Below, piece after piece: positions 1,119-27,090 of a stretch of DNA of 27,090 bases. Numbering within the stretch: the stretch's first letter is position 1; each line of letters opens with the position of its first letter. The notes under the pieces were generated by a model. The model made no database searches. It saw only the letters and a program-made list of their open reading frames with translations, and had not been told where the DNA came from. Source of the DNA: Aplysia californica (Eukaryota); contig NW_004797277.1 of the NCBI RefSeq assembly GCF_000002075.1, positions 1,013,946 to 1,041,035 on the forward strand, given 5' to 3'. A program made the translations under genes and the position numbers.

Positions 1119-1202
1119 TTCATCGACTCATGTTAGACAAAGACAGCACAATCAGCCTTGTACATAGACTCACGCTAGACAAAGACAGCGCAATCGGGGT
1201 GT
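1119..1202. repeat. About 42-bp tandem duplication (x2)
   Basis: gactcatgttagacaaagacagcacaatcagcc and gactcacgctagacaaagacagcgcaatcgggg. Confidence 0.7.
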
Positions 1203-6514: not shown

Positions 6515-6531
6515 CCCCCCCCCCCCCCCTT
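6515..6531. repeat. Poly-C homopolymer (17 nt)
   Basis: Direct reading. Confidence 0.95.
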
Positions 6532-6750
6532 AAACTTTACTAAGAGGGATACAGCATCCAAGCACGAAAGAGTCTTATAGTCACTAAAACTTGTTAAAAA
6601 GATCAAAGCTAACATGTCAAAACTGTACACATACATAGTAAGAAACGCAAAACGGTAGATTAAAAACCATAATTGTATACTTTTTATTAGGAAGAAAACA
6701 ACCCCTATATAGAATTCAGGTTGGGTCCTTGTGTGTGAGTTTAAGAATAT

Positions 6751-6759
6751 GTGTGTGTG

Positions 6760-6831
<72 letters not shown>

Positions 6832-6834
6832 CGA
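6751..6834. repeat. (GT)n microsatellite, about 38 units, one interruption, GC-rich decay at the 3' end
   Basis: Direct reading. It drives the track ORFs 6499..6846(-) and 6729..7023(+). Confidence 0.98.
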
Positions 6835-7689
6835 GCGTTCAGGCATGCAAGCTTGTATTACATAGGCCTACATGCTTGTCAAGTGAAAGCCACAGGACAC
6901 CTACTGTGTCTACACCTATATGTAAATGTGTTTGAACATATGTATGTAATAAAAAAGGACAGTGCTATCACAGTGATAAGCTCTAAAAATAAGTTAGCTG
7001 TGTCTGCAACTGTTTTAAAATGAGCAGTAAGAATATATAATAAAAGTACCATGAAAAATTTCATCAGTTAAATATTATCTTATCAAAAGGCACCTCCACT
7101 GACTGAAACCAAACAATCAGAGAATATACGCAGACAAACGAAAGCATACATAAATAGTGGCTGCTCACAACAAAGCTGGTCCAGATGGTAAAACGATTCA
7201 GAATTGGTATGCATCAACTCTGTATAGAGATATGAAATTATGTTAAAAAAGAACAGATAAACAAAGCATCAATTAAAGGCCCATTTGGAACATCTTAATT
7301 CTTAAGAAACATAATAAGACAAAGCAACAGGGAGCAGGATGTTAAAGAACAACCCCAAATGCACACTCACAAAAAGATACATTTTTTAAAGAGTACACAC
7401 GCACTCATTGAAATCTAAAGAATCTAAACATGCATTGTGAGCTGCCTCTATGACAATTTTGAAATAAAAACCTGACGCAATGTAAGAGCTCACAAAGTTA
7501 GTATATCACAGGAGGAAATATCTAAATACATGTATGTGTACAAAAAAAAAAGAGCTGTTCATTACTTTTACCAATACATTTGGGGCAGGCAATAGACAGC
7601 ATGAACTGTGTAAAACCGGAAAAAACTTGAGACTGGGCAAAGACAAGAGAGCCATTTTGTGGTGTGACATACCAACTGTCAGGAGTCTC

Positions 7690-7900
7690 GGAGATGAAAA
7701 GTCTTTTCGTTTTAGTAAGAGAAGAGTTTTACAGCGCTTGCAAAACAATAAGGTAATGAAAATGCCATAGATTAGAGGTGTTACAAGAGAGCAACAAACA
7801 CATAAAAGAAGGAGGAGAGATAAGGATGATAGATAGATGTCAGATAAGAAAAAAGGTGCAAACAACACCAGAGCACCCGGCAGCCATCTACAGATGTATA
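7690..7900 (+). repeat. Dispersed repeat family C, copy 1 (about 200 bp)
   Basis: gttttagtaaga...cttgcaa...gccatagattagaggtgttacaagagagcaacaaacacataaaagaaggaggagagataagg...gataag...caaacaacaccagagcacccggcagcc, against 24770-24980. Confidence 0.65.
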
Positions 7901-8299
7901 GTCAAAGGACCCAAAGTAGCAAAGTGTTTAAGTTGGAATGAGCACAGAAACAAAATTTATAACACAGAATTTCAAAAGTTTAATTCTTATACTTTTCACC
8001 AAAGCCAGAATGGCTCAAGAATAACCTTTGTAATCACAGACTCTTGCCTTTCTGCTCAACAAACCATGCACAGAGACATGTCATACCCAAACACATTTCT
8101 TGCACAGTTCACATGATTAAGAGTACAAAACAGCTACGGAGGTATCTTATTCTACTACTGCAGAAATTATGCGAGGTATTCACAAATTAAGTACACCCAG
8201 TGCCCACAATAAACATATGCTTTCATAACTCTGAATGAAAAATGACTTAGAGGAATAAAAAAGATTGGGAAATATTTTCTCGGAAAGATATAAAAGTGA

Positions 8300-8790
8300 G
8301 CAAGCTGACCATTGACCAGTAGATTGATGCACCACAAACATCGAACATTTGTGAGACATCATGGTGAAAGACAGGCGCCTGTCAAAATAATGAAATCAAG
8401 GAAACCAGCATTTTCCGCCGGTTTGCCAATCTTTATCAGATTTTTGTTTTTTGGCTCAACAACTTTCATATTCATTTTATTAATACATTTCTGTGTGGAT
8501 GTTACTCAAAAACACTGACTTTAAAAAATGCAAATTTGCAGCTTCCTAGGACTCTCAAACTTTGGAAGTCGCCAGCTTAAGGGGCGAATTTCTCTATAAT
8601 TTTACCTCAAGACTATGCAACCCCCACCTCATTCAATCCCAAATATCTCAACTTCTATTCAAGATAGTTGAATATTTTTAAAATCTAAAGCAAGACAAAT
8701 GAACAAGATTTAATAGCTCCCCAAGCCCAATACCTGATGAGCACCTGATTCCATGGCATCATGACACATTTGATCACTGCTAGCAGTTCA
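8300..8790 (+). repeat. Dispersed repeat family B, copy 1 (about 450 bp, unclassified)
   Basis: It is colinear with 23930-24392. Shared blocks include gtcaaaataatg, tttctgtgtg.at, aaactttgg, attcaatc.caaata, ttcaaga.a.atag, aagcaagacaaatgaacaag, tgatgag.gcctgatt and catgacacattt. Confidence 0.7.
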
Positions 8791-9020
8791 TGAAAACCTG
8801 TAACTTTCCTTTCACTGTGGTAGAGTACAAAGGACTGCATAATCCATGACAGACAAAGGTCTCTACGTGTCATTCAATACATTTTCTTTTTCCCCAACAA
8901 TCTTATTTTTGCACTTAATAATATATTATGTCATAATAAAATTATATCCACCAAAGATAGCAAAGTGTGGATACTAGTACAGTTTCTTTCATTCTTGAAT
9001 TGGTTAAATATGACTACATA

Positions 9021-9199
9021 CAGTGGAAACCACATATAACAGGCCCGGTAATAACGAGGATCCGGAAATAATAGGTATTGTTTAAATCCCCGTTTTTTCC
9101 TACTCTTTGTCTCTATTAAAAGTAATCGGCAATAACAGGGCCTCATCGGAGCCTAATCGGTTATAGCAGGGACAAAGGCTCGTTAACAACGTGTAAAAA

Positions 9200-9286
<87 letters not shown>

Positions 9287-9644
9287 TGTGTGTGTGTGTG
9301 TAATGCAGTGATGGAGCAAGCCCACACAAACAAGCGACACCACTGCAAGCACACGCAGCGGTGAAGCGAGAGAGGACTGCGGTGTGCTGGCAGACTTCGA
9401 TCCAGCCCTAAGCCTAGCTACAAGCACGCATAATGTGTCATGTGCAGGCCTGCCACATAGCCACAAGAGAGGACTGCGGTGTGCTGTTCTTGTGTACTTG
9501 TGGCAAGGGAAATTACCAATAAATAAATACAGCTGGATTAGTCCACAAATGCTTACTTCCCTTGCATTTCTGATTTAACAGGGATCTGATACAATAGGAC
9601 TTTTTCTCTGGTCCCATCATCCCAGTTACATTAGGTTTCCACTG
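9021..9644. mobile_element. Tc1/mariner-type MITE (about 624 bp). Termini are CAGTGGAAACC...GGTTTCCACTG with about 26-bp imperfect TIRs and TA flanks. It contains a (GA)n microsatellite
   Basis: Left end ta|CAGTGGAAACCACATATAACAGG at 9019-9043. Right end CCAGTTACATTAGGTTTCCACTG|ta at 9622-9646. About 22 of 26 TIR positions match. There is no ORF with transposase motifs inside. Confidence 0.65.
9203..9300. repeat. Compound microsatellite (GA)n of about 40 units, then (GT)8, inside the first MITE
   Basis: Direct reading. It drives the track ORFs 9100..9466(-). Confidence 0.98.
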
Positions 9645-9656
9645 TAAGTGTATGTA

Positions 9657-10486
9657 CAGTGGAACTCGGATTCAACAAGGTCGTCGGGCCTGACCTAAAA
9701 TCTCGTTGAATCCGAGTGTTCGTTACTGCAAACACGAGGTTTTGTGTAGATAATTACAGGCACTGAGCAAGTAATGTACAAGAGAAGTCATAAGTAGTGC
9801 CTGAAATGCCTGCATATTATGAGCTGTGTAAAAAAAAAGACCGATTCGTTCAAATACACATGCCTGTGTAATCTCGATTGTTTACCACAAAGTTGTGTTG
9901 CTGTAGAGCCTAGCATACGGCAAATTTTGATTCCATAGACCAGCGCACAATTCAGTACGTAGATCTACGTCAAGACTAGCTTATTATTAATTATTGTAAT
10001 ATTGATCAGTTGCCGAGGGAAAAAAAGACTATGACACGTTTGTATGCGACGTTCAACACCCGGACCGCAAGTGCCCCCTCCCCGACACGCACTCACAGTC
10101 ATACGTGTGCAGGCCGCCCATTCGACCCAGACACACGCCTGAGTAGACACATGCACGTGCCAACTTCACATGTGTTGGTATTTAAGAAGGCCGCTGATTG
10201 GTCGCATGCAATCGGTTAAGTGAATAATGGTTCACGATGCAGGTGCAATGGATGGTTTTCGAGAATAGATACAGTTTGTTCGGGGAGAAAAATTAGCGAA
10301 GCCAAGTCTGCGGAGGCTGTTCACCCTGGAAGCGACCTCGTTTAATCCGAGCTCGCTGATTTAAGTACTCGTTGAATCCGGGTTACTTTTATTGATTTTA
10401 AAGGAAAAAAAACCCAGGGAATTTATCTCATCTCGTTGAATCCGAGTTCTCGTTGAATCCGAGCTCGTTAAATCCGAGTTCCACTG
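9657..10486. mobile_element. Second Tc1/mariner-type MITE (about 830 bp). It has 24-bp TIRs CAGTGGAACTCGGATTCAACAAGG / CTCGTTAAATCCGAGTTCCACTG, TA TSD, and at least 5 subterminal copies of TCGTTGAATCCGAG
   Basis: Left ta|CAGTGGAACTCGG at 9655-9669. Right CCGAGTTCCACTG|ta at 10474-10488. The motif TCGTTGAATCCGAG (the inner half of the TIR) recurs at 9702, 10338, 10368, 10431, 10449 and 10464. It is separated from the first MITE by only 10 bp. Confidence 0.7.
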
Positions 10487-10772
10487 TATAAAAAAAAGAC
10501 AACTAAGAGGAGTAACAATCCAAAAGATAGCTATGTACAAAGCTGACTGTATATACAGTCGACAGAGTCTACTCAAAGTAGCAGACTTTACACTTTTGCT
10601 TTCTACTCCATATTCCTAGTAAATAATATGTGACATTGTGAGCTGCTGATGTGAAGTCAAGTAAGAGTAGACAACAAGAAAAGGGGAGACATAAAAAGCT
10701 CCAGGTATAAAAATATGTAGTGCATATAAAAAAACAAACTGATATGTCTTTATGTCTTTATTGCCAAATATG

Positions 10773-10776
<4 letters not shown>

Positions 10777-10817
<41 letters not shown>
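10777..10817. repeat. (CA)n microsatellite of about 20 units, preceded by (CT)3
   Basis: Direct reading. Confidence 0.98.
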
Positions 10818-10820
<3 letters not shown>

Positions 10821-11479
10821 TAAATACCTACCCAAGAGAAAAAATGCTATGAGTTTGAAACACTTTACCAAGTGTGACACATGTTTTCAGAAAAGAAAGA
10901 GAGAAGGTAAGAATTCGATCTGACTCTAAGTTGACCTTTATCATACTTTATGAGGACAGTATTTGCTCCTACACAAAGAACTCAACAGACTAGGATCCAT
11001 CGCAGAGTAGAACTAAGCCCTTGAAGAGCTGGGAAAGTTCATCAACTAACAGCAATGTGGCAAGAGGAAGATATAATAAAAATTATTCAAATATCAAAAC
11101 TTCAAAATGTTATATTGGCATTAGGAGGCCTAAAATATTGTGAAATGTTCGAAACAATTATCCTTTATGGCAAATTTTATACAAACATAATAGAACTATT
11201 ACAAAAAACTGTAACAAATTCATTTTGTTTCATTGTTGTAATAAAAAAGAAAGCCAAATAAATCCTAATAATTGCACTCCAGAACAATAACAGTACATAC
11301 ACACAACATATAGCCAAATAAAAATAAACAAAAAACAAATTGATTGAAAGGAATCCACTCAAAAGGAAACTAATTGTAATGATTAATGAATGCACAGCGA
11401 GGTAAAAAAGAGGAGTCCAATCCCCATTATCGCTAGCCAGCTGTTCAGGTAAAGTTAGCCTAAAATTATGATACAAATT

Positions 11480-12218
11480 TTTATTTACTGATTCTTAATC
11501 TGTTGTGTACCTTGCATGTGACCGAAAAACATTTGTCCAAATTTGATTTCTAAAAGTTGAAAAAAGCAAGAAAAGATACACAATGTAGGTGCAATTTTTC
11601 AACAGATTTACTTTATCTCTAGGAAAATTTCGTTTTCTGGGCGTAGACCAGTTGACCAGCTTGCCTGCAATATGAATTCCACTACAATTTTCATGGCCTC
11701 TATTTCCTTCTAATGAAGGTCATAACAGTACACTCAATCATTTCAATTATGTTTATACTATTGACTTTGAATCAGTCTGTGACTCACTGCACAAAAAATT
11801 CAACAAACCTCGAAAGTTCTACAAAATACTTAAAATCTAGTCTAAAGTTAAAGTCCAATTCCAATTAAAGAAAAGTCTGAAAGAAACATGTACGTCATTT
11901 GATCTTATTCAATCCATCTTCAAAAACAGAGATTTGAACAGGATATTTATAACATTTGATCTTATTCACAGCCTGTGCTCAACAAATCAAGAGTTCAACA
12001 AAACATTTATATCATTAAGAACAGATCATATTCACAGTCTGTACTCAACAAATAAAGAGTTCAACAAGACATTTATATCATTAAGAATTGATCATATTCA
12101 CAGTCTGTACTCAACAAATAAAGAGTTCAACAAGACATTTATATCATTAAGAGTTGACTATATTCACAGTCTGTACTCAACAAATAAAGAGTTCAACATC
12201 ACAGCAAGACGTCGGGAG
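11480..12218 (-). other. MVP: Putative MVP 3'UTR. It contains a 66-bp tandem repeat. The first minus-strand AATAAA downstream of the stop is at 11480-11485
   Basis: This is the region immediately downstream (minus sense) of the TAA. Plus-strand tttatt at 11480-11485 is the first canonical poly(A) signal on the gene strand. The transcript end cannot be set from sequence alone. Confidence 0.25.
11880..12205. repeat. 66-bp tandem repeat, about 4.5 copies (3 near-identical, 1.5 diverged), starting about 15 bp after the MVP stop codon
   Basis: The unit acatttatatcattaagaattgatcatattcacagtctgtactcaacaaataaagagttcaacaag starts at 12003, 12069 and 12135 (period 66). Diverged copies lie at 11880-12002. 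It produces the artifactual plus-strand track ORF 11934..12317. Confidence 0.9.
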
Positions 12219-12335
12219 TTATTCTTGAGGGTTCTGCCCCCCAACCAGGCCAGAAGCAGTGTTCAGAAGGTTGATCGGGCTGTTACCATCAGTCAGCAAG
12301 ACGCTCTCGAGGCCTAGACCTTTCAGCAAGTTCAC
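12219..12335 (-). CDS. MVP: MVP terminal coding exon: [38 protein letters not shown]. The TAA stop is at 12219-12221
   Basis: Acceptor cacctcatcag|GTG, in phase 0 from exon 15. It matches human [32 protein letters not shown]. There is an in-frame TAA. No donor is needed. Confidence 0.88.
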
Positions 12336-12686
12336 CTGATGAGGTGAAAGGTTGAAATTTAAAAAATCAATTTCAACTACTCATTGGGAAATTTTTTAAA
12401 AGCCAACTATGAAATTAAGGAAAGGGAAAAAGTAGGTTGAGTACTTCATACTGAATTAAAGAAAAAAAGAAAAAGAGGAAGTTAAAAGAAGGGAGCACTT
12501 GCCTTCAGGGTAAACTTCATACTTATGAAGTCACTTTCAAATAAGAAAAGAACAAGACCAAATCGTTTCTGCATAAATGACTTACACCTATAATATACTA
12601 TTGCTGCAAACAAATTTGTAAACATTCAAAGAATGGCCAAAAAGGGTGAAATATCTGGGAAAAAAGGATGAAAAGATGATACCAAC

Positions 12687-12767
12687 CTGACTTTCAGGTC
12701 CTGCATTTGCTATGGCAACAAGGGTATCAGTCCCAAGGGTTTGAACCATTTGACGGAACTTGTTAGT
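12687..12767 (-). CDS. MVP: MVP exon 15: TNKFRQMVQTLGTDTLVAIANAGPESQ
   Basis: Acceptor tcttgtattgcag|ACT and donor AGTCAG|gttggt. It matches human [27 protein letters not shown]. Confidence 0.9.
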
Positions 12768-13105
12768 CTGCAATACAAGAATAAAATTTGGATACGATAA
12801 GAATATAAGGTAAAATACTGGTTTTTCCCATATACAACACTATTTAACTCACTGACTACTGTCATCGCAAAACTTGAGATGTTTTTTCACAATGCCTGAC
12901 TACTGCCATTTCATTTGTTGCCACATCAAACTTCAGAATTGTTTTTCTAATACTGGCAACCCAACTGTCATGATGCGGACAGTGATCAAAGTTGTAACCA
13001 TTCCCATTTCCATTAAATCAAAGTAGAAGTCTCTAACATGAAATGTTTCATTCAGATTTATGATTTTCTTGTTACTGTTACCCGTAACATTATCTGTGTG
13101 ATAAT

Positions 13106-13120
13106 GGGGGGGGGGGGGGG
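13106..13120. repeat. Poly-G homopolymer (15 nt) in an MVP intron
   Basis: Direct reading. Confidence 0.95.
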
Positions 13121-13950
13121 TTGACGGCGAGAAGTTAAACAGCATAATCCTACTTGCTGGCTCATTAAGCGCAGCAATGACAATGATATCCATCCACTAA
13201 AAAACAAAAATTTACCTTTATATGAAACTAGTGGCAGATCTTCGAGTCAAAATCTGTCACTTCAGTTAAATCAGTGAATAAAACTTCAGTTCAGCAAACC
13301 TCTGGCTCTAAATCTTGCAACGCACCTAGACCTACGGCAAATATATTTCATTTATTCCCTGCTAACTATAGCTGTTTTAGTCCATTAGATTCAGAGACTA
13401 ATAACAATAATAGTTTGTCCAATAATGTCCGACGAGGACAATGGTATATCCTCTTAATGTGTGTCAGTAACATATTCTTAGTCATGTAATGTTCGAAGAG
13501 GAATGAAACAAAGTGAAAAAAATTGAGGATAAATTAGGGTCAAATAAAGAAATTAAAGCCCCAAAATTAATTATGATAACCCCTTTTTGATCATTTCAAA
13601 ACAAACCATACTTGTATAGATATAGAACACCTTCTGTGAATGATTTTTTGAATAAGTATGGACAAAATTAATGTTTTTAAAATACCTTTCATTTGACTAG
13701 TCACTAGGGGTCAATCCAGGAGAAAATTGCAGTTAGTCCGTGAATATCAAGACCAGGGAAGCTGGGCCTTATGGCGGGAGTTACGGGAAGCCATTAACAA
13801 AATGTCAATCATTCAAGGTCAGTTCCTTACGTGCCTTCAGTTTCAAACAGACCCCAAATGAATTTCTCTAAAATGGGAAAAATGATGAAAACTTTTTCCC
13901 ACACCATTTAAAACAGGATACAAAGAATGAATATTGTCTAAAAGGCATAC

Positions 13951-14031
13951 CTCAAGTTGTGCAAATGCATTCTCTTTGCCAATGGTGATAGAGTTCATTT
14001 TCTTCTGATAGTCCAATGTTTGCCTCCGCAG
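13951..14031 (-). CDS. MVP: MVP exon 14: LRRQTLDYQKKMNSITIGKENAFAQLE
   Basis: Acceptor ttttgatcttattcacag|CTG and donor CTTGAG|gtatgc. It matches human [26 protein letters not shown] (L.Y pattern, then KA.QLAE.E). The track ORF 13952..14137(-) is a different frame and was not used. Confidence 0.78.
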
Positions 14032-14439
14032 CTGTGAATAAGATCAAAATAATATCATTAAAAACTATTACTAAAGTTTTCAAAAGACAAAGTACGAGAT
14101 TGTTTATTCCATATTGTCCTTCCTTCTTGTTAGGCAAACACTCACTTAAGTCCGCCTGCTCATAGCTCTCTTCGTGGTGTTTCCCAATGACAAAGAAGAG
14201 CAGTTAAAAAAAACTTATTTTTTTTTTTTTTTAAAACAAACACTTATAAAGGAAACATCTCTAAAATAAACTTCTAATCAGCAGCTCTCTCACTCAACTT
14301 AATTTGTACTTCAACTGATTCCCACATTTAACGAGTAATATATTAACTAAATACCATATCAGACTGAATTATCATTTATCTAAATAACGCAGCACATAGG
14401 AGCAGAAATCTAATAAAATCCACACTGCCAGACTCTGAC

Positions 14440-14504
14440 CTTATTCTCAAACTGTAGCTTGGCATCATGCTCTATCTGTGAGGCTTCAGCCTTCAGTCTG
14501 GCAG
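14440..14504 (-). CDS. MVP: MVP exon 13: (A)ARLKAEASQIEHDAKLQFENK
   Basis: Acceptor gtatttctcattctag|CT and donor AATAAG|gtcaga. It matches human QAKLKAQALAIETEAELQRVQKV. Confidence 0.85.
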
Positions 14505-15070
14505 CTAGAATGAGAAATACATACGGGTTACTTCAGGACAAGCAGTCTATCTAAACAAAATTCAAGCAGAAATGATTTATAAGATAATCAATCTTTTAAA
14601 ACAAACACAAGAGGACGAAAACATAAATTCACACTCTGCATGTGTTTTCAATAAGACATAACGTTTGAGATTTGGGGATGTGGGCACCAAGAAAAGCACA
14701 GTGGAAATTGTCAACAAACGATGATTTGCCAGTTTGTAAAAACTAGCCAAATTATGCCATGTGAAATTACTCCAAACCAAGCCGTGTACATAGGAAGGCA
14801 GGCCTTTAGTAATCTACCTATAAAGTGGCCCTAAGCAAGACAAATAACGATTTGGTTTCTATTGTACATCCTTAAAAAGTTGTATTTCTATTTTAAAACA
14901 AACCATAAAACAACAGTCGTACCTGGAGGGGGTCAAGTACTTTCTGTAAATCACTGCAAAAAGAAGTAGATTATTTTGCACCAGTTACAACCAGTCTACT
15001 TTTATTTAATGACTCATCCCATTCAAGCATAGCCCCAGTGTGTAAAATCTTGGTGTAAAGAGGCACGTAC

Positions 15071-15297
15071 CATCAATCTGACTCTGGCACTCGATGAGGA
15101 ATCTCTCAGCCTTGGCTTGAGCCTCAGCCTTGGCCTGTCCCGTGGATTCAACAGCTGATGCCAAGGCCCTCAGCTCGTACAATTTTGCCCTTTCTCGCTC
15201 AGACTCTTTCTCCGTTACCAAAATTTGTCTCTCCAGGTGCCCTTTGGCAATCTGTTCTTCCCTTTGAGCTTCATGTGATGCAGCTGCTTCAATAGAA
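15071..15297 (-). CDS. MVP: MVP exon 12: (N)SIEAAASHEAQREEQIAKGHLERQILVTEKESERERAKLYELRALASAVESTGQAKAEAQAKAERFLIECQSQID(A)
   Basis: Acceptor tttgtatttttccaacccag|T and donor GATG|gtacgt. It is a strong match to human [74 protein letters not shown]. It overlaps the track ORF 15006..15344(-). Confidence 0.92.
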
Positions 15298-15816
15298 CTG
15301 GGTTGGAAAAATACAAAAATGCTTTTGTTCTTCGGCGCTGGCAAATTTCTAATAGGCTACTAAATTTATTTATATTTCATTTTGATCTTTCACAGTTGAA
15401 AAGTATTATCAATGAGGAAATAAACAGCAAAAATGTACAACTCTGGACAAAACATATCATCTGAATAATACATAAAAATCAACATCAGTGTTCTTATAGT
15501 TTTGCCTCTTAAATTGAAACACAAGGAGGGCTGGTTGCAGGAGAAAAGTTGCAGGAGAAAAGATACTAAGACAAGGTAATGAGATACACTTGATCCCACC
15601 AAGTAATTTCCTACAAAAGCCCAATAACAATTATTAATACAGCATTGAAGGCCACTTTAGGTCACATCATTATCAAACAAAGGGGCACAATACTTTCAAA
15701 TTTATCGGCCCTACCCTTACCAAAATGTCACATTTATTTCGGTGTATCATCTCTGCCTTCCATTATCATTATCTACTTTTTCCCTTTATTATTATGTAAA
15801 ACCACTCAAGGAATCT

Positions 15817-15830
15817 CCCCCCCCCCCCCC
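15817..15830. repeat. Poly-C homopolymer (14 nt) in an MVP intron
   Basis: Direct reading. Confidence 0.95.
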
Positions 15831-16043
15831 TTTAACCCTAGCCTACTAACCAAAGAGATCTCTACATTTGTTTCAGAAAAATGTATTCGATACTAATGCA
15901 CAAATCCTTCCAAAACACAACTGAACAATAAATAAAGCTATTTTTAAGTGCAAATTTTTCTTTACTTGTGAACCTTCTCACTGACACAAATCACTGCTGA
16001 AAAGAGTTAGAAAACAATTTTTAAAAAGTCCTACTGAACTCAC

Positions 16044-16144
16044 TTTGTAGCAATTTCAATAGCAAGCTGCACTGATTTGCTCAAACTGTCTCTCATCTTG
16101 GCATCAGAGGGTTCAATGCTCTGAACATCAATGCCACTGATAAC
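16044..16144 (-). CDS. MVP: MVP exon 11: [33 protein letters not shown](N)
   Basis: Acceptor ttatttcttcactag|GTT and donor ACAAA|gtgagt. It matches human [34 protein letters not shown]. Confidence 0.9.
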
Positions 16145-16880
16145 CTAGTGAAGAAATAACCAATCACACACAGAACATGAAAAGGAGTAAAACTCATGGG
16201 CCTCAACTCAGAATTTTAAAAAAGGAGGAACTTTCCTCGTGATCGTGACAGAAGACCATTTTTGCGAGACACCCATTATCATTATACTGTAAAACCCTAG
16301 AATGCTGAAAAAACCCCCACCAATTTATCAAAGCAAGGTTATTTCATACCAATTTGAGGGTATGGAAGATGATTTCAAGTAAAAGAGTAGCAGTAACTGA
16401 GTTTAGCGGAGGAAATGGTGGTAGCGGGAATCCACTAAATAGCAGAATATTGAGACCCATAAAAACTAAACGGCAGAGGATGGTGGGAGGGGGAGAGGGA
16501 TGGGGAGAAACAAGTTGATTAAAGACAAAATGACACAATGAGGACAGTGTTGACAACAAAGTAAAGAATGTTCCCTTGGACCTATGAACAAATTTCTCAT
16601 TTATTTAAGATCTTGATCCCCTTGGGCAGGTCCCCCAGCATAAATCATTTTAAAAAGTGGTCAGCCATCTTCAACATATTCAAGATTTCGATCATTTGAA
16701 TTGACACCCCCATCCCCAACCCCCCATACATATCTTTGCCCAACCTATTTTCCACGCACTTCAAAATGAGATGCACTTTAACAATCATCAACATACAGTA
16801 GTAAGTTATAACAAAGGGTGGGACAAAAATCTGTGGATGGGGATAAATGGAAACGACACAGAGCGTGTTATTCAGGCCAG

Positions 16881-16903
16881 TTGTTGCTGTTGTTGTTGTT
16901 GTT
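16881..16903 (-). repeat. (CAA)n 3' tail of the LINE (reads as TTG repeats on the plus strand)
   Basis: ttgttgctgttgttgttgttgtt lies immediately 3' of the ORF2 stop on the element strand. Confidence 0.7.
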
Positions 16904-17294
16904 ATCGATCCAGCAACATCTGGGCTCTCGCCCTTCTGTCCAATGCCATGTAGTGATAAGTGCAGGTTTGCTGCAGTTGCTGTAATGTTCCGTAGAGTGT
17001 GTTGTCGAAGTTAGGTCTCGGAGGGAGAAGGGTAGCTCTGATGTCATTTAGGGCTGTACAGTGGAAAAGGTGATGTTCCACTGTCTCATATGCATGGTCA
17101 CACAAAGGACACATTGGGGGAAGTTCTGGTTTTATTCTGTTTAAGTGAAAGTTGAGCTGTATATGTTCTGTTCGTAGGCGGAAGATCGTGGTCTGTTTCT
17201 TTCTCTGTAGGTGGTTGATATTGTCATTTCGTTTTGTTGTAGTCATATGTTTGAAAACTGCTCTGCCCGTCTTTCCCAAGGCCCATCTGTTCAT
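16902..17294 (-). pseudogene. LINE ORF2 C-terminal cysteine-rich (CCHC zinc-knuckle) domain. It is frameshifted relative to the RT/RNase H frame
   Basis: CPLCDHAYETVEHHLFHC in the track ORF 16902..17294(-). This frame differs from the upstream 17291..18856 frame, which is a decay frameshift. The stop TAA at 16902-16904 directly abuts the (CAA)n tail. Confidence 0.75.
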
Positions 17295-18856
17295 CCAATC
17301 TTGTTTGCTGTTGCTTTTAATGATTTGTTTTGCAGTGTGGTATGAAGTTGGAATGTTGGTTGTTCCTGTCTAGATCCCCTTTTGGCGAGTGTGTCTGCTC
17401 TGTCATTTCCAGGTATGTTTGAGTGTCCGGGAATCCACTGCATCACCAGGTTGACGCCACAGAATGTTATCAGATGATGGGAGCCAAACAGTATATGTGT
17501 CAAGTCTTCATTTAGATGGTGATAATTTTCTATTGCTTGCAAGACTGATAATGAGTCAGTGAAGATCACTATACTCTGGGTTTTGTTTGGATGAGTGTCA
17601 AAAACTGTGCGGAGATGGTATAGTGCTGTTTCAATTGCTATCATTTCTGCGTCGTAGTTGTTGCATTTCTCTCCACAGGCTGCAGAGATCTCATTGGAAC
17701 TTCCATCTGGGTATTGTATTAGTATTCCATATCCGGCTTTGGTTGTGCCTTTGAATGCTGAGCCGTCTGTATAGACCTGTATCCAGTCATCTGAATAGCT
17801 GTCGATTGTTTGGTGTGAAAGCATCAACTTCACTGGGTCTGAAGATTTTGTGCTATTGTCTCTAAGAGAAGTTTTAATGATTGGTTTTTCCATAGAAAAG
17901 TGAGGAGGGATGTTTTGGTTGACTCTTTTGGTTTCTCTTCTATTTTGTGGTAGGTGGTGGCTCTCCATTAGTTCTGTGATGCGATGCATGACTGATTTTT
18001 GTTGAAGTCGTTTCTTTGGTTTCCATGTTTCTACTAATTTCCTGTTTGGGTGGTTGGGGCACATTCTTTTGGTTCTTTCATGAAGCTCCAAAACTGTTTT
18101 ATCTCTGCGTATTCCCAGGGGTTCAACATTTGACAGAATTTCACATGCGGCAGTAGGTGTAGATCTCATGCCACCATTAATGAAACGAAGGGCATTATTT
18201 TGGACCTTGTCAAGGGTATTGCAAGTAGTTGCACTACACGTAGTGAGTAGGCTATTGCTGTATTCCAGGGAAGATCGGACATAACCAAGGTATAGAGCTC
18301 TCAGAATTTGTTTGTCTGATCCCCATGAACTGCTCGCAAGTTTCTTTAAAAGTTGGAGTCTTCTTTTCGCCTTGTTCTTTATGCTCTCCACTTGGCTTTT
18401 CATTGTTAGACTTTGGTCAAGTTTGACTCCTAGATACGTTGGTTGTTCTTCTTTGGGGAGATTTTCATTTCCTATCTTCAGTTGGAGTTTTTCTTTGGCT
18501 ATTTTATGGCTCTTTGTAAAGATGGTGTATACTGTTGTCGAGCAGTTTATTTTGAGCTTCCATTTCTGACAGTAATTGTGGAGCCTCTTGAGGTCTTCAT
18601 TTAATTTTCCTGCTCCTACTACCGTGCTGCGATGTGTCTGCCAGAGAGCAAGATCATCAGCGTAGAGAGTCTTTTCTGATTTCAACACGTTCGTCACATC
18701 ATTAATGAAGATCAGGAACAAAGTGCAACTCGGAGAGGAACCTTGGGGTAGGCCCTCCTCGAGTACTTCTCTTGATGAGTGGGCATTGTTCAGGCCAGTA
18801 GGAGTTAAGATTATATCAATAACTCCACTTGCCCAAACATTGACAAGCGACTGATT
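17291..18856 (-). pseudogene. LINE ORF2 fragment: reverse transcriptase (motifs A-like, B, C and later) plus RNase H. The open frame is bounded upstream by a stop at 18857-18859 and has no true start
   Basis: This extends the track ORF 17291..18721. Its first 'M' is actually TTG, and the frame stays open upstream through GLPQGS (motif B) to a TGA. The motif 2 to motif A spacing is collapsed to about 6 codons (internal deletion), and the catalytic D of motif A is lost. Confidence 0.85.
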
Positions 18857-19349
18857 TCACAGCACCATGACACATATGAGGAGTGAAATCCTGACTCTTC
18901 ATGAAGGGAAACATTGTATCATCACTCTCTTCAAAAACCTTCAATACTTCTACAAACCAATCAGTAGTCTAATAAATATATTTTCATTCCCATTTCTTTT
19001 GTACAAACATACAGCAGTGCAAGTGGACTTGATACATCATCATCATCATCCAGTGCCTTGCCGACTGGATTGGGCGATCATGGACCTCCACTTCACTCTG
19101 TCTTGTGTTGCAGCAATGGTGTCTGTTGTTCTTGCTGCTCCCAGCCATGTTGTCATCTTGTCCAGTATCTTTTCCCTCTATCAGCCTCTGCCTCTCTTTC
19201 CACCAAACTTGCCTGTTGTTACAATATTCTCCAATGCTTCTTTCCGCATTGTGTGTCCAAAGAAATTTGCCTGTCGCTTTATACATATTCATGAAAAAAA
19301 AAAGGTGTGGTTAGACCTCTTGGGTCCTTTTACATGCAGTATGACTCAC

Positions 19350-19474
19350 CAGATTGTTCACATCAAATCTCAAAGACTGCTGCTTCCCAAACACTGCTGC
19401 TTGTATGAGCTGGGCAGAGTGGCGGTGGAACTCGTCAAAAGTAATCAATGCAACCGAGGCACGGATACGGCTAG
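19350..19474 (-). CDS. MVP: MVP exon 10: (A)[41 protein letters not shown]
   Basis: Acceptor ccttttttatgcctcttcag|CT and donor AATCTG|gtgagt. It matches human [31 protein letters not shown]. Confidence 0.88.
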
Positions 19475-19923
19475 CTGAAGAGGCATAAAAAAGGTCACAC
19501 TGTACACTCTATTCAATGAGTCTGAGATGTCTCTAATAATGGCATATCAAAACACTGAGTACAAAAAATCCTTAGAAATAAAAAATAAAACAAAAACAAA
19601 AAACTATATACTCTGCAGATATCATTACCAGTCCGACATAGTACAATTTTAGTACAAACCAAAGATGACACAAAACAACATTATTTGTGAATCTACTTTG
19701 CTGGGATTGCTAGAAAAAGAAGTTTAAGAAAAAAACAGCAACCCAAAACTATTCTACTACACAGCTAAGAGCCATCAACCAATATTTTAGGAAAAATTAT
19801 ACCCTAAAATTGCACAAAAACAATTCTTTTAAAAAAGAGTCATCCAAAGCTAGATTTAATTGTAAGATTGATGAATGCTAAATATTGCAACATCATTTCT
19901 TTAAAACTACTCATCATTTCTCA

Positions 19924-19974
19924 TTTAGTAGAGGTTTTACGGCGCTCGCAGCTGCATAAGGTCATATGAGCGCC
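19924..19974 (+). repeat. 51-bp hairpin-containing element, copy 1 (inverted partner at 21500-21550)
   Basis: tttagtagaggttttacGGCGCTCgcagctgcataaggtcatatGAGCGCC. It has an internal 7-bp stem (GGCGCTC/GAGCGCC) and a gtcatatgac palindrome. Confidence 0.85.
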
Positions 19975-20053
19975 AATCATCATTTCTGATTTTAAAAAAC
20001 CAAAACAAGTACACTGTCAATGTTGCCAAACTTCAGATAGCTTGTAAAATTAC

Positions 20054-20132
20054 CTATCTGACGACAGGCAAATCCGATGAAATCAGGCACTGAAAATATT
20101 TTGCGAGTACTCTCCAGGTCTGTTTTGTCCAC
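20054..20132 (-). CDS. MVP: MVP exon 9: VDKTDLESTRKIFSVPDFIGFACRQI(A)
   Basis: Acceptor ctctctgtgtttttaag|GTG and donor ATAG|gtaatt. It matches human [28 protein letters not shown]. Confidence 0.9.
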
Positions 20133-21185
20133 CTTAAAAACACAGAGAGAGTAGAAAGACATTTTAACACATAAATTTGAGTATAGAAATGTTCATGCTG
20201 AAAAAAATGTGTCCAGTTTTATTAAAGCAATGGGCATCGCTGATTATTCTTTAAAAAATGAAACGAGACATTTTTAATGGATGCAAACTTAAGTTTTAAA
20301 TCTCTTTTACAATGCTCTGGAACTTCACTTTTGTTTTCAAGGACAGACGGAAAAAAAGAGCATATTGAACTATTTTCCCAATTCAGTCTATTGTATTTAT
20401 CAAAAAACATACCAAACAGAGATATATTGAAAAGGATATAGATTACGATTTGAAAATACAACAAGACACATTTTTACAAACTTTATTAAAATTTTTATTA
20501 TTGCAAACAAGGTAATAATAGTTTTACCATTATAAGAAATTGTATCTACTCCTTCAGCTAGATCTTAGGGTAAGTAAGAATAGAATGTCAACCTGGGTGT
20601 TACTAATTTGTTTTCCTACAAGAACAAAGAGTCCTTCACCTTTCAGAGTGCTAAATGCCATTCCCAAAGGTTTTTTTACTTATTTGTACCAAAGAGTATT
20701 TCTTCTCCTCCGACTAAGGATGAACTTGGAATTACAAGTGCTTTTCCCTTCCTTTAACATTCAAGTACCAAGGAGTTTGTAAAATATATACAAACTGTAA
20801 AACTTTTGGCCTGCTACATCCTTCCCTATCTATTTTAACCAAGGGAGGAAACCTGCATAGAAAACTAACTCATCTTCAGCTGCACAGTGGTGATCAGCAA
20901 TGGCATGTTTGTGAAACTGTTCTGTATTGGTGTGATATTGTGTATTTATGTATAAATTCAAATGTGCATTTATGTATCTATTTCTTATTATGTATTTACG
21001 TATGGGTGTTTGCCATTGTAACCCAAATTTCCCTACGTGTATCAATAAAATGTAATTTATTTTCTTTCTATTTAAACACCACTGTACTAATCTTTAGCAG
21101 AACCTGCTTCTTTGGAATAGTAGGTGTGCACAGTGCATATATCTCCACACTACCAAGCTCGTCAGTCAGCATCTACATTACTTAC

Positions 21186-21245
21186 ATCAAAATAGTTGTT
21201 AAAGGCAAGGCGAATACGCAATCTGGCATGATCAGAAGTCTCCAC
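21186..21245 (-). CDS. MVP: MVP exon 8: VETSDHARLRIRLAFNNYFD
   Basis: Acceptor cgtctttttcag|GTG and donor TTTGAT|gtaagt (perfect donor). It matches human [20 protein letters not shown]. Confidence 0.9.
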
Positions 21246-21499
21246 CTGAAAAAGACGTACATAAGAGAAAATGGTCACAATATATGCATTCTTTTCTTAT
21301 ATATACAATAAGTTGGTAATCTGTTCAGAAGATAGTTCTGCCACGATCAAATGATTATAAAGGACTCCGCTCAACTATTTCGATTATGCTGCAGCATGAA
21401 AACAAACAAGATGAAAGTTTACCAAACATCTATCGTCCTTATCTCCCCTCCTTCTTTTTTATGTTTTATGTTACTCTCTTGTAACAGCTCTAATCTTCT

Positions 21500-21550
21500 G
21501 GCGCTCATATGACCTTATGCATTTGTGAGCGCCGTAAAACCTCTACTAAA
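21500..21550 (-). repeat. 51-bp hairpin-containing element, copy 2 (reverse complement of 19924-19974, about 47 of 51 identical)
   Basis: ggcgctcatatgaccttatgcatttgtgagcgccgtaaaacctctactaaa. Flanks beyond the 51 bp are unrelated. Confidence 0.85.
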
Positions 21551-21615
21551 ACTAAAAAATACAAGATGAATAATTAGGAAATAAGTGATGAAGATAAAAT
21601 GTGACAGGTTCTTAC

Positions 21616-21695
21616 CTCAATAACGTCAGTAATGAAATCTGGACCAAGCATGAGGCACAATGATTTCAGTGCATTGGGCAGCTTTGGTTTGCCAG
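21616..21695 (-). CDS. MVP: MVP exon 7: (A)[26 protein letters not shown]
   Basis: Acceptor ttattgtttatgcag|CT and donor ATTGAG|gtaaga. It matches human [29 protein letters not shown]. Confidence 0.9.
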
Positions 21696-22484
21696 CTGCA
21701 TAAACAATAAGAAAAGAGAGAATTATGTCAAGTTCTTAGGTTCTGCAAGGTTCTCAACCACAGCTAGAGCTGAGCACCATAAAGAATTTCATTTACAGTT
21801 TGATCTTGACTTAAGCTATACATTTTGATAAATGCAGTTATCTTTGTGTTTTCTTTTAGTTTAATTCCAGAGCAGCAAAATCAGTTCGGCACAATATGGT
21901 GAAAAGGCTACGACAAAGTGAAAAAAAAATCTAAACAGGACAAAAAAGCAAAACATAAAAAATTGTGCAGAATTTTCCAATTAATACACAATGGGATCAC
22001 AATGAACACCAAATTAAAATAAAGTATTAACTAAAACATCCCCATAAAAATGATACTCAACCTCATCAGCAATGGGAATGCATGAAAAGCTTGATGTAAA
22101 GATCCTTATACAATAGGAAATTCAGGAAGTAAGAATGACTAATAATAATTTTGAGATGTCCAAGAAAAGCTAAATAATCAAAAATGAGTTGTAGTTCTGA
22201 TACCAATGAGAGTGATATGTCCTTACCAAGTCACAATGCTGTATGTACCCCATGGGAAATGATTGTAAATTGATGTAATAAATACTTGATAAAGAGAATC
22301 AGTGCTAAGTTATGTGAGCCAGTCCTGGATCGGAAAAGTAAAAAGTATGTGAGCCAGTCAACTGAATGGATGTATGAATAAAAATGTTCCTATGTCATTT
22401 TTTAAAAACTCCCTGGAAAACAAATAATGTGAGAGAAGTTAAAAGGACATGCATGAAGAAAAGAATGACATGTTTGTTCTTTAC

Positions 22485-22638
22485 CGCTCAGACTCAAAAC
22501 GTTAAAGTTTTCATGAGGCCCCAAAACAACGAGATCGGGTCCAAAGATCACTCGTGCTGTCTTCTGCAGGTAGTCGTAAACCTGCACAGCTGTATTGCTG
22601 GGACATCTGTAAGTGACAACCTTCGTTTTGTCCCGTCC
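22485..22638 (-). CDS. MVP: MVP exon 6: [51 protein letters not shown]
   Basis: Acceptor ttttctactgccattcag|GGA and donor AGCG|gtaaag. It is a strong match to human [51 protein letters not shown]. It overlaps the track ORF 22402..22659(-). Confidence 0.92.
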
Positions 22639-23677
22639 CTGAATGGCAGTAGAAAACAATACAGTTTGTTAACACCCTGAGGTAGAGTAGGAGATGAAAG
22701 CTAAAAGAAAATAATTTCTTTAAACATTATTTAAGCAATTGAATGCCAACAAATAAAGCTATTCCTGCTTATTCTATTGTTGTTTCCTCTTAGTGTTGAA
22801 ATACCAATGTACTTGATCCCATTATTACAGCAAATGATATGAATGAGATCATTAACATAGCACCCATAAAAGGTAGCGGGACAAAACAAACAAAACAAAT
22901 AAAAATGGTTTAAAGTTTTATATCTCTTCACAAAAACAATGTCAATGTTGCCCTATAGAGGACCAAAAAGACTGTATCAAGTCTAATCTTTTTTTGTTAT
23001 TTTGTAAAATAAGATTACAAATTCAGCATCCATTCACATGAATATTTCTGTAACAACCAACAAATCGAGTCCTGCTGATCACAGAAGTAACTAAATACTT
23101 TTTAAAATATTTCAATATCAATACTGACTTTCTGGAACCCTGAGAGGGATTTTCTTTTTAAGATGGCTTTTATGAACTATAATGATAATGTTTTTTCTAG
23201 GTGATATAGTATCCCAATACAGTTTTACTTGCTGATGAGTGAAAGTTTATCTTGAGTCCACACAAAATGGCCAGGGGTCGCAGTGAACAGATTAGAATAA
23301 TATTTCACAAAAGAGTAGATCACATCAGAGCCCTACCTACCACCCTCTACTAGAGCTTTACTCCAAAGCAAATCCTAGATAAGATATAAAAATAAATGAA
23401 CACTTGAGAAGTGCTTTGTTACTTTCATGAACTTAAAGAGAAAGCAGGAATCTGTATCTTTAGCATTTGCTTGAGCTCAACACCTAAAGAGACACAAACA
23501 ACTCATATCAAATGAAGACCAACTGGCCAATAGAGCAGAACAGTGGAGAAGAAAGAAAAAAAATAATGGCTTAATGACTATTGGGCAGTTATTCCACTAT
23601 CAGAGAGGTTACATGTCTGGCTGGCATGACGTGAGTCTATTTGCTATTTCCCAAACCCATCGTAAACGTATCCTTAC

Positions 23678-23756
23678 CTCAGCGTTCATTGGGTCAATAG
23701 ACTGCTCATAGTAAGCAAGCTTCCTGATATCACCCTCTCCAGAGCCACCACCATGT
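23678..23756 (-). CDS. MVP: MVP exon 5: (R)HGGGSGEGDIRKLAYYEQSIDPMNAE
   Basis: Acceptor tcttgatcttacag|A and donor GCTGAG|gtaagg. It matches human NKGQDPLADRGEKDTAKSLQPLAP loosely. Phase is consistent on both sides. Confidence 0.8.
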
Positions 23757-23929
23757 CTGTAAGATCAAGAAAAGGAGCTTTTTTGCTGTCCTGCATGTTT
23801 AGCCACAACTTCTTTATCAAGATGATGTCAACCATGGGGCAGTTTTATTTTTGTTATGAGGTGTCTTAGAAAATAAAGTCAACAGATTCTTCATCATAAG
23901 CTCAAAATAACTTAGATGAAGAAACTTAA

Positions 23930-24392
23930 GCATTTACACTTACATATTTGTCAAATGTTAAATTGGCAAAACACATGGCAGCACAGTGAAATCAGGTGCT
24001 TGTCAAAATAATGTAGTCAGAGAATCAGACATTTTTGCCCCCTCTTGGGCAATTTTAACCATTTTTTTCCCCTTTGACTTTTCACATTTTACATGTATAA
24101 AGTCACATTTCTGTGTGAATTTAAAGGAAAAAATTTTGATCAAGGCACCAAAAAAGCTCTTTTAAATCAATAAACTTTGGCGGCCATTTTCTCAGTAATA
24201 TAACATTTAACACCAGGAGACTAACCTCCTTCAATCACAAATACCTGGACTTCAATTCAAGACAAGATAGGTATTTTTTTCATCAAAAGCAAGACAAATG
24301 AACAAGTTTTAAGATTATACAACCGACTCCATATGCCCAAAAATTGATGAGTGCCTGATTACACCGCGTCATGACACATTTTTACAGTCTAT
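23930..24392 (+). repeat. Dispersed repeat family B, copy 2, inside an MVP intron
   Basis: See copy 1. The block order is the same over about 400 bp. Confidence 0.7.
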
Positions 24393-24397
24393 CTTGT

Positions 24398-24560
24398 TTA
24401 AGTTGACCATCTATTATTGAGGAGAAAAGTGGTCATCTTAGACAGCTGGTTCTCCTGGAGAGTGTCATTATAATATAGATAACAGATACTGGGGGGGGGG
24501 GGGGGGGGAGTGGAAAGTGGTTGTTTGAACAGATGATTGTCATGGACAGGTGGTCTTTGA
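24398..24560. repeat. Dispersed repeat family A, copy 1 (unclassified, possibly SINE or MITE). It contains the G18 tract
   Basis: It shares attg.cga.gagaaaa.t.gt...cttagacag..g and tgtcatggacaggtggtc modules with 26440-26610 and 26975-27060. Confidence 0.55.
24491..24508. repeat. Poly-G homopolymer (18 nt) in an MVP intron, inside a dispersed repeat copy
   Basis: Direct reading. Confidence 0.95.
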
Positions 24561-24619
24561 GTGAGCAGATTTGACTGTAGTCTGTAGAAACTGTGAAGTC
24601 GCCAGTTCAAAAGTTGTAC

Positions 24620-24714
24620 CTGAGTAGGTTTTCTGTTTCATTACTAAGTTCCTTCTGCCAAAGGTCCTCCGTGGCAGTCAGCATGTAAGCACAGGGGCCC
24701 ATCACCAAGCGAAC
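24620..24714 (-). CDS. MVP: MVP exon 4: VRLVMGPCAYMLTATEDLWQKELSNETENLL(R)
   Basis: Acceptor ttattttgattgtcag|GTT and donor CTCAG|gtacaa. It matches human [30 protein letters not shown]. Confidence 0.88.
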
Positions 24715-24769
24715 CTGACAATCAAAATAATATACACTTATAGAAAAAGAATGAAAAAGGAAGTACCTT

Positions 24770-24980
24770 TATCCCTGAGGATAGATTTGTTATGTTTTAG
24801 TAAGACTTTAAGGCACTTGCAACGAGAATGGGTCATACAAGTGCCAGAGATTAGAGGTGTTAGTTACAAGGGAGTAACAAACACAGAAAAGAAGGAGAGA
24901 TAAGGGGGATAGATATCTGACGGATAAGGAGGAGCAAACCACACTAGAGCACCCGCCAACCACCCACAAAGGCTTGTTGA
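24770..24980 (+). repeat. Dispersed repeat family C, copy 2 (MVP intron)
   Basis: gttttagtaagactttaaggcacttgcaacgag...gccagagattagaggtgttagttacaagggagtaacaaacacagaaaagaaggagagataaggg...gataagga...caaaccacactagagcacccgccaacc. Confidence 0.65.
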
Positions 24981-25518
24981 TTTTTTACAAAATAAACATA
25001 ACACTGTATATTTGAAAACAATTTCTAAAAAGCACAGTTGGTCTCTGGAGGACAGCAAGTTTTTAGTAAAAATTTTTTATTTATTTATTTATGTATTTAT
25101 TATTTGTTTGTTTTTGTTTTTTTGGGGGGTGGGGTAAGGAGCCAGAGGACACATCTAGTGGGTACCACCCAAAAGGCTATGATGACATCAATGTCTACAC
25201 AAAGCATGGTCATTTAATCACTATTCACTCCTCCATTAAAACCGGAGTAAACTTCTCCATGCGACCCTCCTTATATTCAAATATGCAAGAAAGAGTGAGA
25301 GGTAAAGACAACAAACTAACATGAATAGTTTCAATAAAAGAAGCAAACTTAAAACACAAGATTAACCAGGTAGAAGGACATAATAAAGCTAATTATAAGA
25401 TTAAAAATACTGTATAGAATCAAACTAACCATTTCAACTCCAGGTGTGTATGAAAATACCACATTACTCCTATCAAACAAGAGTATATATCGAGAAAAAG
25501 CATAAAAAACTAACTCAC

Positions 25519-25579
25519 CCTTCCTGAATGTGCGTCTTGAATATACACTCCTTCATTTTTGCTCAGTGGAATTTTTTTC
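25519..25579 (-). CDS. MVP: MVP exon 3: (R)KKIPLSKNEGVYIQDAHSGR
   Basis: Acceptor ttttttttcag|G and donor GGAAGG|gtgagt. It matches human AIPLDENEGIYVQDVKTGK. Confidence 0.85.
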
Positions 25580-26005
25580 CTGAAAAAAAAAAGTTTGCAA
25601 AATGTGTTAATAACCTGATGAGGCTGAAGAAACTAAAAGTAACCAAAGTCAAGAAGTACATCGAATTCCTTAATCTATGTTTCAGAGGTCAACTGATATT
25701 TTCCATGACTTGACGCTGGTCCACTTTATTTGAAAGATGCAGTATAAATATGCAGGGTTTTTCAAGATTCAAACCATAGTTCATTTTTTCATTGCCCACC
25801 AGCAAGAAAAACTACCAAACTAGTTCCCATTATAAATGTTCTTTAAGAAATGTGTTATCTTAAAGTTTAACTATGTGTCTTCTATGATTATACGATGTAA
25901 GTATCTTCACAACACAAAAAAGCCATATTTTGAGGTATTTAAGACAGTGCAAATTTTACAGATAGCCGTAAATGTTCGTTCTGAAGTAAGTATAACAACA
26001 TGTAC

Positions 26006-26096
26006 CTCTGCTTAACAATTTTCACATGGATTGGTGGTATGTAGATCATTGGGCCTTTGATGAGCCATTTGTCACCTGGTTCACGCTTCACTTTTG
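26006..26096 (-). CDS. MVP: MVP exon 2: (A)KVKREPGDKWLIKGPMIYIPPIHVKIVKQ(R)
   Basis: Acceptor gtttccctttccag|CA and donor CAGAG|gtacat. It matches human [31 protein letters not shown]. The phase links to the G left by exon 1 (G+CA = Ala). Confidence 0.88.
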
Positions 26097-26439
26097 CTGG
26101 AAAGGGAAACACAAACATTTAATATCAGCTTGAAAGAGGAAGCATGCAGAACAGATCCCTAGTTGTTTTCTACTTCACTTTCATGTGTAAGCCTTTAAGT
26201 CAAGAATAAATCATTTCAACTCCACTATACATCCTCAGCATAAAACCCATACATCTGTAAACATAATTTACTTTTCTTCAGTACTTACAATAGGATAACA
26301 TCCTTCAGGAAAAAACTACGACATTTTGAAGGCCTGTTCCATGCTGTAGGGTTTATGGATCTATATTCTTAGTATTAAAAAACTATCTGTCAACAGACTG
26401 ACATAAAAAACAACTGGATAGAAGGCTGTAAGTATAATC

Positions 26440-26610
26440 AAAATTGTCCATGACAGCCATCCATTGTCGAGGAGAAAATTAGTTGCCTTAGACAGGTACA
26501 GTACAGTGTCATGATTTAAAAAGAAACACAAGGGGTGAAGTGGGACGTGATGGGCTGTACAGGTGATCGTCTTGGACATGTGGCCGTTAGAACAGGTTCA
26601 ACTGCATAGG
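26440..26610. repeat. Dispersed repeat family A, copy 2 (MVP intron)
   Basis: tgtccatgacagccatccattgtcgaggagaaaattagttgccttagacaggt ... acaggtgatcgtcttggacatgtggccgtt. Confidence 0.55.
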
Positions 26611-26842
26611 GAAAAGAAGCCAGCCCTTAGTAGGGAAGATGTGGTGTAGGAGTGACACAGCTCCTCAAACAGTGTTGATTCTCAAGATGGCGTACAGCAT
26701 ACTAGTATCCCCACCAACACACAGATTGGACTGAGCTGTCTTGAAAAATGTAAATGACACAAGCATTAAAGAAATTACAGTTCTTCATCAACCCTCAAGT
26801 CTCACTTTCGTTGCATAGCGAATGAACAAACAGAAGACCAAC

Positions 26843-26947
26843 CTTCACCCACAGTATCAATAAATTTGTCCAAAGCTTGAAGGACAACAGAATCATCCTC
26901 AGACAGCACTCTTGCATCTTGGATCTTGCCAAATTCAAGTTTTTCAC
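26843..26947 (-). CDS. MVP: MVP exon (window exon 1): (G)EKLEFGKIQDARVLSEDDSVVLQALDKFIDTVGE
   Basis: Acceptor cctcacctcag|GT and donor GAAG|gttggt. The exon starts with 2 nt completing a codon and ends with 1 nt (phase 1). It matches human [36 protein letters not shown]. Confidence 0.85.
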
Positions 26948-26974
26948 CTGAGGTGAGGAATGTAACAAATGATA

Positions 26975-27060
26975 GAGTCAAAATGGTCGGACAGCCACCC
27001 ATTGTCGAATAGAAAAGTGTCTGTCTTACACAGGTGACCGTCTTACCCAGTGCCCTTATA
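26975..27060. repeat. Dispersed repeat family A, copy 3 (MVP intron)
   Basis: atggtcggacagccacccattgtcgaatagaaaagtgtctgtcttacacaggtgaccgtcttac. Confidence 0.55.
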
Positions 27061-27090
27061 ATGTAAAAAAATAACTTTGGTGTGTGTGTG

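Follow-up and report, generated by a model that had tools for sequence, protein, structure and literature searches.

The vault particle contains the major vault protein (MVP) in 78 copies, 39 per half-shell, whose cap-helices form a stabilising coiled-coil bundle (PMC13347060; PMC3762200). From the N-terminus, an MVP monomer has nine repeats (R1–R9), then the SPFH-like shoulder, the long cap-helix and, at the C-terminus, the cap-ring (PMC13347060; PMC3762200), and the cap-helix of human MVP spans residues 647–814 (PMC13347060). In Aplysia californica, RNA-seq results showed that MVP was up-regulated in aged sensory neurons (PMC6042401), and mass spectrometry detected an MVP with the accession number XP_005108623.1 in kinesin transport complexes (PMC9829102). 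This study analyzed a 27,090-nt stretch of the A. californica genome (assembly GCF_000002075.1, contig NW_004797277.1, positions 1,013,946–1,041,035 of the forward strand), which is referred to as the window and whose first letter is position 1. Our results leave very little doubt that the locus on the minus strand of this window represents the 3' portion of A. californica's single annotated MVP gene.

The spliced translation of the exons identified between 26947 and 12219 was identical, at 532 of 532 positions, to residues 316–847 of the 847-residue protein annotated as "major vault protein [Aplysia californica]" (NCBI; P0047), to which two bases of codon 315 are added. In a database search with a 530-residue model, P0047 was matched with 100% identity and 100% coverage, followed by heterobranch and other molluscan MVPs with identities of 62–75%. 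The same model was aligned with residues 315–850 of human MVP (E 1.2e-157) and residues 314–850 of rat MVP (E 7.6e-154), each in a single colinear alignment that was unbroken through residues 647–850 of both proteins and thus included the cap-helix and the cap-ring. An initial annotation of the window, made from the sequence alone, had proposed that 16 exons make up the 3' two-thirds of an MVP gene, with the vertebrate order of sequence through AVESTG.AKAEA to TDG..PINL. Both proposals agree with these results, and the search of the concatenated translation against MVPs that it suggested returned colinear MVP matches at E ~1e-157.

The window encodes ~63% of MVP, namely the C-terminal part with R7–R9, shoulder, cap-helix and cap-ring. 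When the full Aplysia protein was searched against the whole window with tblastn, residues 1–310 were without any match. Thus, the 5' third of the gene is beyond 27090, and the exons for residues 1–315 (R1–R6) are located upstream, past the high-coordinate end of the window. Exact-sequence look-ups with P0047 and with the retroelement ORF of intron 10 yielded no contig.

The gene model was rebuilt independently of the initial annotation. A human MVP sequence served as the tblastn lead, only for locating exons, and gave 14 matches on the minus strand that were colinear from 26960 to 12240; all conclusions were drawn from PDB sequences and the annotated Aplysia protein. For each pair of neighbouring matches, every phase-compatible combination of donor and acceptor was enumerated. 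For the two exons without a direct match (23756..23678 and 14031..13951), the gaps were scanned for open segments that were bounded by AG and GT and had the needed phase. The resulting model contains 16 coding exons and 15 introns, all of which are GT..AG introns of 351–3205 nt with a pyrimidine-rich tract before the AG acceptor. The reading phase was consistent at 15 of 15 exon junctions and all 532 codons were open. The exons begin at 26947, which follows ...cctcacctcag, and the TAA stop codon ends at 12219; these outer limits equal those of the initial annotation, whose count of 16 phase-consistent exons was also reproduced.

The open reading frames (ORFs) listed for 12000..27090 include two minus-strand ORFs, 15006..15344 (112 amino acid residues) and 22402..22659 (85 residues), in which vault-protein sequence had been noted before. 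Both belong to MVP: ORF 22402..22659 matched Pfam Vault_3 (E 1.1e-23), and the core of ORF 15006..15344 matched residues 668–739 of human and rat MVP in PDB (E 1.3e-12). A homology search with 124 residues from these two ORFs gave only short gene-caller fragments, and the 530-residue query was needed before named full-length MVPs appeared. The rebuilt model likewise has 14 exons outside these two ORFs; their sizes range from 60 to 125 nt, however, and not from 60 to 154 nt, as the 154-nt exon belongs to ORF 22402..22659. ORF 15006..15344 contains an exon of 227 nt. The G+C content of the window was 32–44%, and this AT-rich composition looks like that of animal genomic DNA.

As several exons are only 60–81 nt long and many phase-compatible AG/GT combinations exist around each of them, such a chain could in principle be assembled by chance from short open frames between AG and GT dinucleotides. 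A single colinear alignment to solved MVP structures with an E value of 1e-157 and an exact match of 532 residues to the annotated protein already refute this explanation, to which we give no weight. Conservation of the weak exons 5, 13 and 14 in other species also argues against it. An oyster MVP fragment (P0008) reads GGGLGTGDIRKMAYFEQSIDPQN..GRDKTRVV over the junctions of exons 4, 5 and 6, supporting exon 5. Moreover, an independent, related MVP locus at 1126..14853 of a 333662-bp contig in ENA assembly ERZ26859052 (L001) possesses exons 9–16, whose order and ends match those of the window. Amino acid identity is lowest for exon 14 (45%) and highest for exon 16 (94%), and the introns show no conservation. 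L001 is probably from another mollusc present in that assembly.

All exons are on the minus strand. The first exon in the window (26843..26947, 105 nt) contains the two bases completing Gly315, the codons of residues 316–349 and the first base of codon 350, and starts R7. Its acceptor is ...cctcacctcag/GT, and an apparent "FL" match upstream of 26947 was rejected as a translated polypyrimidine tract that is not coding. Exon 2 (26006..26096, 91 nt, residues ~350–380) has canonical splice sites, encodes the GDKWLIKGP motif of R7 and was 100% identical to residues 350–380 of P0047 by tblastn. Together, exons 1 and 2 are spanned by Pfam Vault (PF01505; 53.7 bits vs. a cut-off of 27, E 2.1e-14). 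Exon 3 (25519..25579, 61 nt, residues ~381–400), with the acceptor tttttttttcag and the donor AGG/gtgagt, was 100% identical to P0047 residues 380–401 in the same search. It is followed by exon 4 (24620..24714, 95 nt, residues 401–432), and the two exons encode R8 and are spanned by Vault_4 (PF17796; 37.7 bits vs. a cut-off of 22.9, E 2.3e-9). Exon 5 (23678..23756, 79 nt, residues ~433–458), which was located by the phase-constrained scan, encodes a variable loop, HGGGSGEGDIRKLAYYEQSIDPMNAE, with no domain match and corresponds exactly to P0047. Exon 6 (22485..22638, 154 nt, residues 459–510), within ORF 22402..22659, and exon 7 (21616..21695, 80 nt, residues ~510–536) encode R9, and exon 7 also starts the shoulder; Vault_3 (PF17795) matched this part of the spliced product with 118 bits (cut-off 28.8, E 2e-34). 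The assignment of Vault, Vault_4 and Vault_3 to R7, R8 and R9, respectively, is suggested by their positions.

The shoulder is encoded by exons 7–11 and was covered by Pfam MVP_shoulder (PF11978) over profile positions 1–118 of 118 (141.5 bits vs. a cut-off of 25, E 1.5e-41). Within it are exon 8 (21186..21245, 60 nt, residues 537–556), exon 9 (20054..20132, 79 nt, residues 557–583), whose amino acid identity to its counterpart in L001 was 81%, and exon 10 (19350..19474, 125 nt, residues ~583–624), which is also conserved in L001, has the donor CTG/gtgagt and was 100% identical to P0047 residues 583–625 (tblastn). Exon 11 (16044..16144, 101 nt, residues 625–658; 91% identity in L001) contains the end of the shoulder and the start of the cap-helix. 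The cap-helix, encoded by exons 11–15, is equivalent to human residues 647–814. It continues through exon 12 (15071..15297, 227 nt, residues ~659–734), which lies within ORF 15006..15344 and encodes AVESTGQAKAEA, exon 13 (14440..14504, 65 nt, residues ~734–755), which is weakly conserved in L001, and exon 14 (13951..14031, 81 nt, residues 756–782), which came from the phase-constrained scan, is conserved in L001 and matched P0047 exactly. It ends in exon 15 (12687..12767, 81 nt, residues 783–809), which encodes ANAGPESQ and is conserved in L001. Finally, the coding part of exon 16 (12219..12335) comprises 114 nt for the 38 residues 810–847 of the cap-ring, the C-terminal end of the alignment, and the TAA stop codon at 12221..12219. 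It was 100% identical to P0047 residues 809–847 (tblastn) and 94% identical to its counterpart in L001. The length of 38 residues, following the exon with GPE(M/S)Q, is as the initial annotation had stated.

Exon 1 has two in-frame GT donors at its end, with a distance of 6 nt between them: TGG/gtgaag at 26849 and AAG/gttggt at 26843. Pairwise comparison showed that the annotated protein has two additional residues, Gly-Glu, at the junction of exons 1 and 2 relative to the model with the donor at 26849. Thus, the donor of the annotated protein is that at 26843, which reproduces this protein exactly, and not that at 26849 (GTGAAG). The closest homologs, heterobranch MVPs, keep the same spacing at this junction, which also supports 26843. 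Alternative use of the two donors, which could yield isoforms of MVP that differ by the presence of Gly-Glu in the R7 loop, is conceivable but unlikely.

Exon structure, identity to the annotated product and domain content of this locus were observed. Nothing substantive weighs against the model, and three points limit it. The donor at 26849 has a better +3 purine than that at 26843, and splice-site reasoning alone favoured it; the choice of 26843 comes from the annotation and from length conservation among heterobranchs. Next, the predicted junctions in general draw their support from identity to a protein that is itself predicted and annotated and from cross-species conservation. Finally, P0047 may correspond to XP_005108623.1, the accession detected in kinesin transport complexes.

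Intron 10 (16145..19349, minus strand) is the longest intron, with 3205 nt. A fragment of a retroelement occupies 16902..18721 of this intron and is oriented like the MVP gene. Its first ORF, of 476 residues, starts near a YADD motif and matched Pfam RNase_H (E 1.6e-16); past a frameshift, a second ORF of 130 residues matched Pfam zf-RVT (E 4.5e-7) and carries a short (CAA)n run in its 3' end at ~16883–16906. The reverse-transcriptase core of Pfam was not detected in the retroelement ORF, even at E values up to 10, and a PDB search of that ORF returned RNase H matches only. These features suggest that the element is 5'-truncated and frameshifted. Such an insertion, and the fact that only the 3' 63% of the gene falls in the window, where the integrity of the 5' exons is not visible, could be taken as signs of a non-functional or duplicated MVP copy, i.e., a pseudogene or partial duplicate. 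However, the retroelement is entirely intronic, the frame is open throughout the 532 codons and every splice site is canonical. Moreover, the product has the same sequence as residues 316–847 of the annotated full-length protein of 847 residues, which has 315 N-terminal residues and all five MVP Pfam families, including Vault_2 (PF17794), and the database search yielded a single A. californica MVP. A pseudogene or partial duplicate is therefore highly improbable, and the locus is best read as part of the annotated MVP gene.

Downstream of the coding region, a 66-bp tandem repeat (11956..12198; 3.7 copies, 93% matches) starts 21 nt past the stop codon. This repeat is probably within the 3' untranslated region of MVP. 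Past the stop codon, AATAAA first occurs at 11485, and another AATAAA is at 10762. Modulation of MVP expression by the 66-bp repeat or by the retroelement in intron 10 is conceivable, and we likewise consider it unlikely. Read on the plus strand, the 66-bp repeat gives a spurious repetitive ORF of 127 residues (11934..12317). Other simple repeats downstream of the gene are a 20-bp unit repeated 6.8 times at the edge of the window (1..137), (TG)41 (6750..6831), (AG)41 (9203..9284) and (CA)20 (10779..10818). Over the 12 kb that follow the gene (1..11900), microsatellites were all that was recognised, and genes, Pfam domains, Rfam families and tRNAs were not. Pfam scans of the seven ORFs of at least 80 residues in 1..12000 and of two ORFs inside intron 10 gave nothing credible, and scans of the whole window for Rfam families, including vault RNA, and for tRNAs gave no match.

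Homology to the rat and human particles of solved structure suggests that the Aplysia protein assembles into vault particles. Splicing of the 16 exons at their canonical introns would provide residues 316–847 with R7–R9, the SPFH-like shoulder, the cap-helix and the cap-ring. Seventy-eight copies of the Aplysia MVP would then form the vault shell, in which two 39-mer halves would be joined at the MVP N-termini and the cap-helix encoded in the window would keep each half together as a coiled-coil bundle.

The initial annotation had also stated that MVP is missing from insects, nematodes, fungi and plants. According to the literature, fungi, insects and probably plants have lost their vaults (PMC3762200), in agreement with this statement for those three groups. 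For nematodes, the same paper names them among the invertebrate groups with MVP sequences (PMC3762200). Its "parasitic nematodes", Clonorchis and Schistosoma, are flatworms, however, so it provides no direct confirmation of the nematode part of the statement. Full-length MVPs of the centipede Hemiscolopendra marginata (P0140) and the horseshoe crab Limulus polyphemus (P0161) were among our database matches, and the gene is thus not absent from all arthropods. MVP has reportedly also been described in the salmon louse, in a paper of 2024. The 2013 statement that there were no arthropod MVP sequences is outdated, and the loss from insects may still hold. A mollusc as the source fits the presence of MVP, and by the exact match to P0047 the species is A. 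californica.

The gene is an already annotated, conserved ortholog whose expression has been published, and nothing in the locus is novel; neither the locus nor its C-terminus is unusual, so the significance of the finding is small. It does show that a multi-exon animal gene had been reconstructed correctly from raw sequence in the initial annotation. Compared with the annotated Aplysia MVP (847 residues), the window product differs in nothing; only the exons for residues 1–315 are outside. Similar to human MVP at residues 315–850 and rat MVP at residues 314–850, it is colinear from R7 to the cap-ring and has the same Pfam domains, and the motifs AVESTG.AKAEA, GPE.Q and TDG..PINL are common to the three proteins. 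Different from the Aplysia protein, vertebrate MVPs possess ~13 additional residues in the shoulder loop after human residue ~609. A missing exon for human residues 610–633 was considered and rejected, as the alignment identifies this stretch as a vertebrate-specific insertion in the shoulder loop.

The C-termini had been thought to differ as well, that of the locus being shorter than the vertebrate one. This did not hold for vertebrates in general. Human MVP (893 residues; PDB 11dr and others) extends 43 residues past the aligned end and Aplysia MVP only 6, whereas rat MVP (861 residues; PDB 4hl8/4v60) extends 11, close to the Aplysia value. Among the 78 retrieved MVPs carrying the TDGxxP[IV]NL motif, the tail after this motif had a median length of 14 residues and ranged from 10 to 58; that of Aplysia has 15 residues and is typical. 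The longer C-terminus assumed in the initial annotation is that of the human protein and does not apply to vertebrates or to MVPs generally, and the long human tail is the exception. Finally, the MVPs of Physella acuta, Biomphalaria, Elysia, Crassostrea and other molluscs, which are 806–875 residues long and have tails of 10–18 residues after the same motif, are ordinary diverged orthologs of the Aplysia protein, with identities of 62–75% over the whole 530-residue segment.

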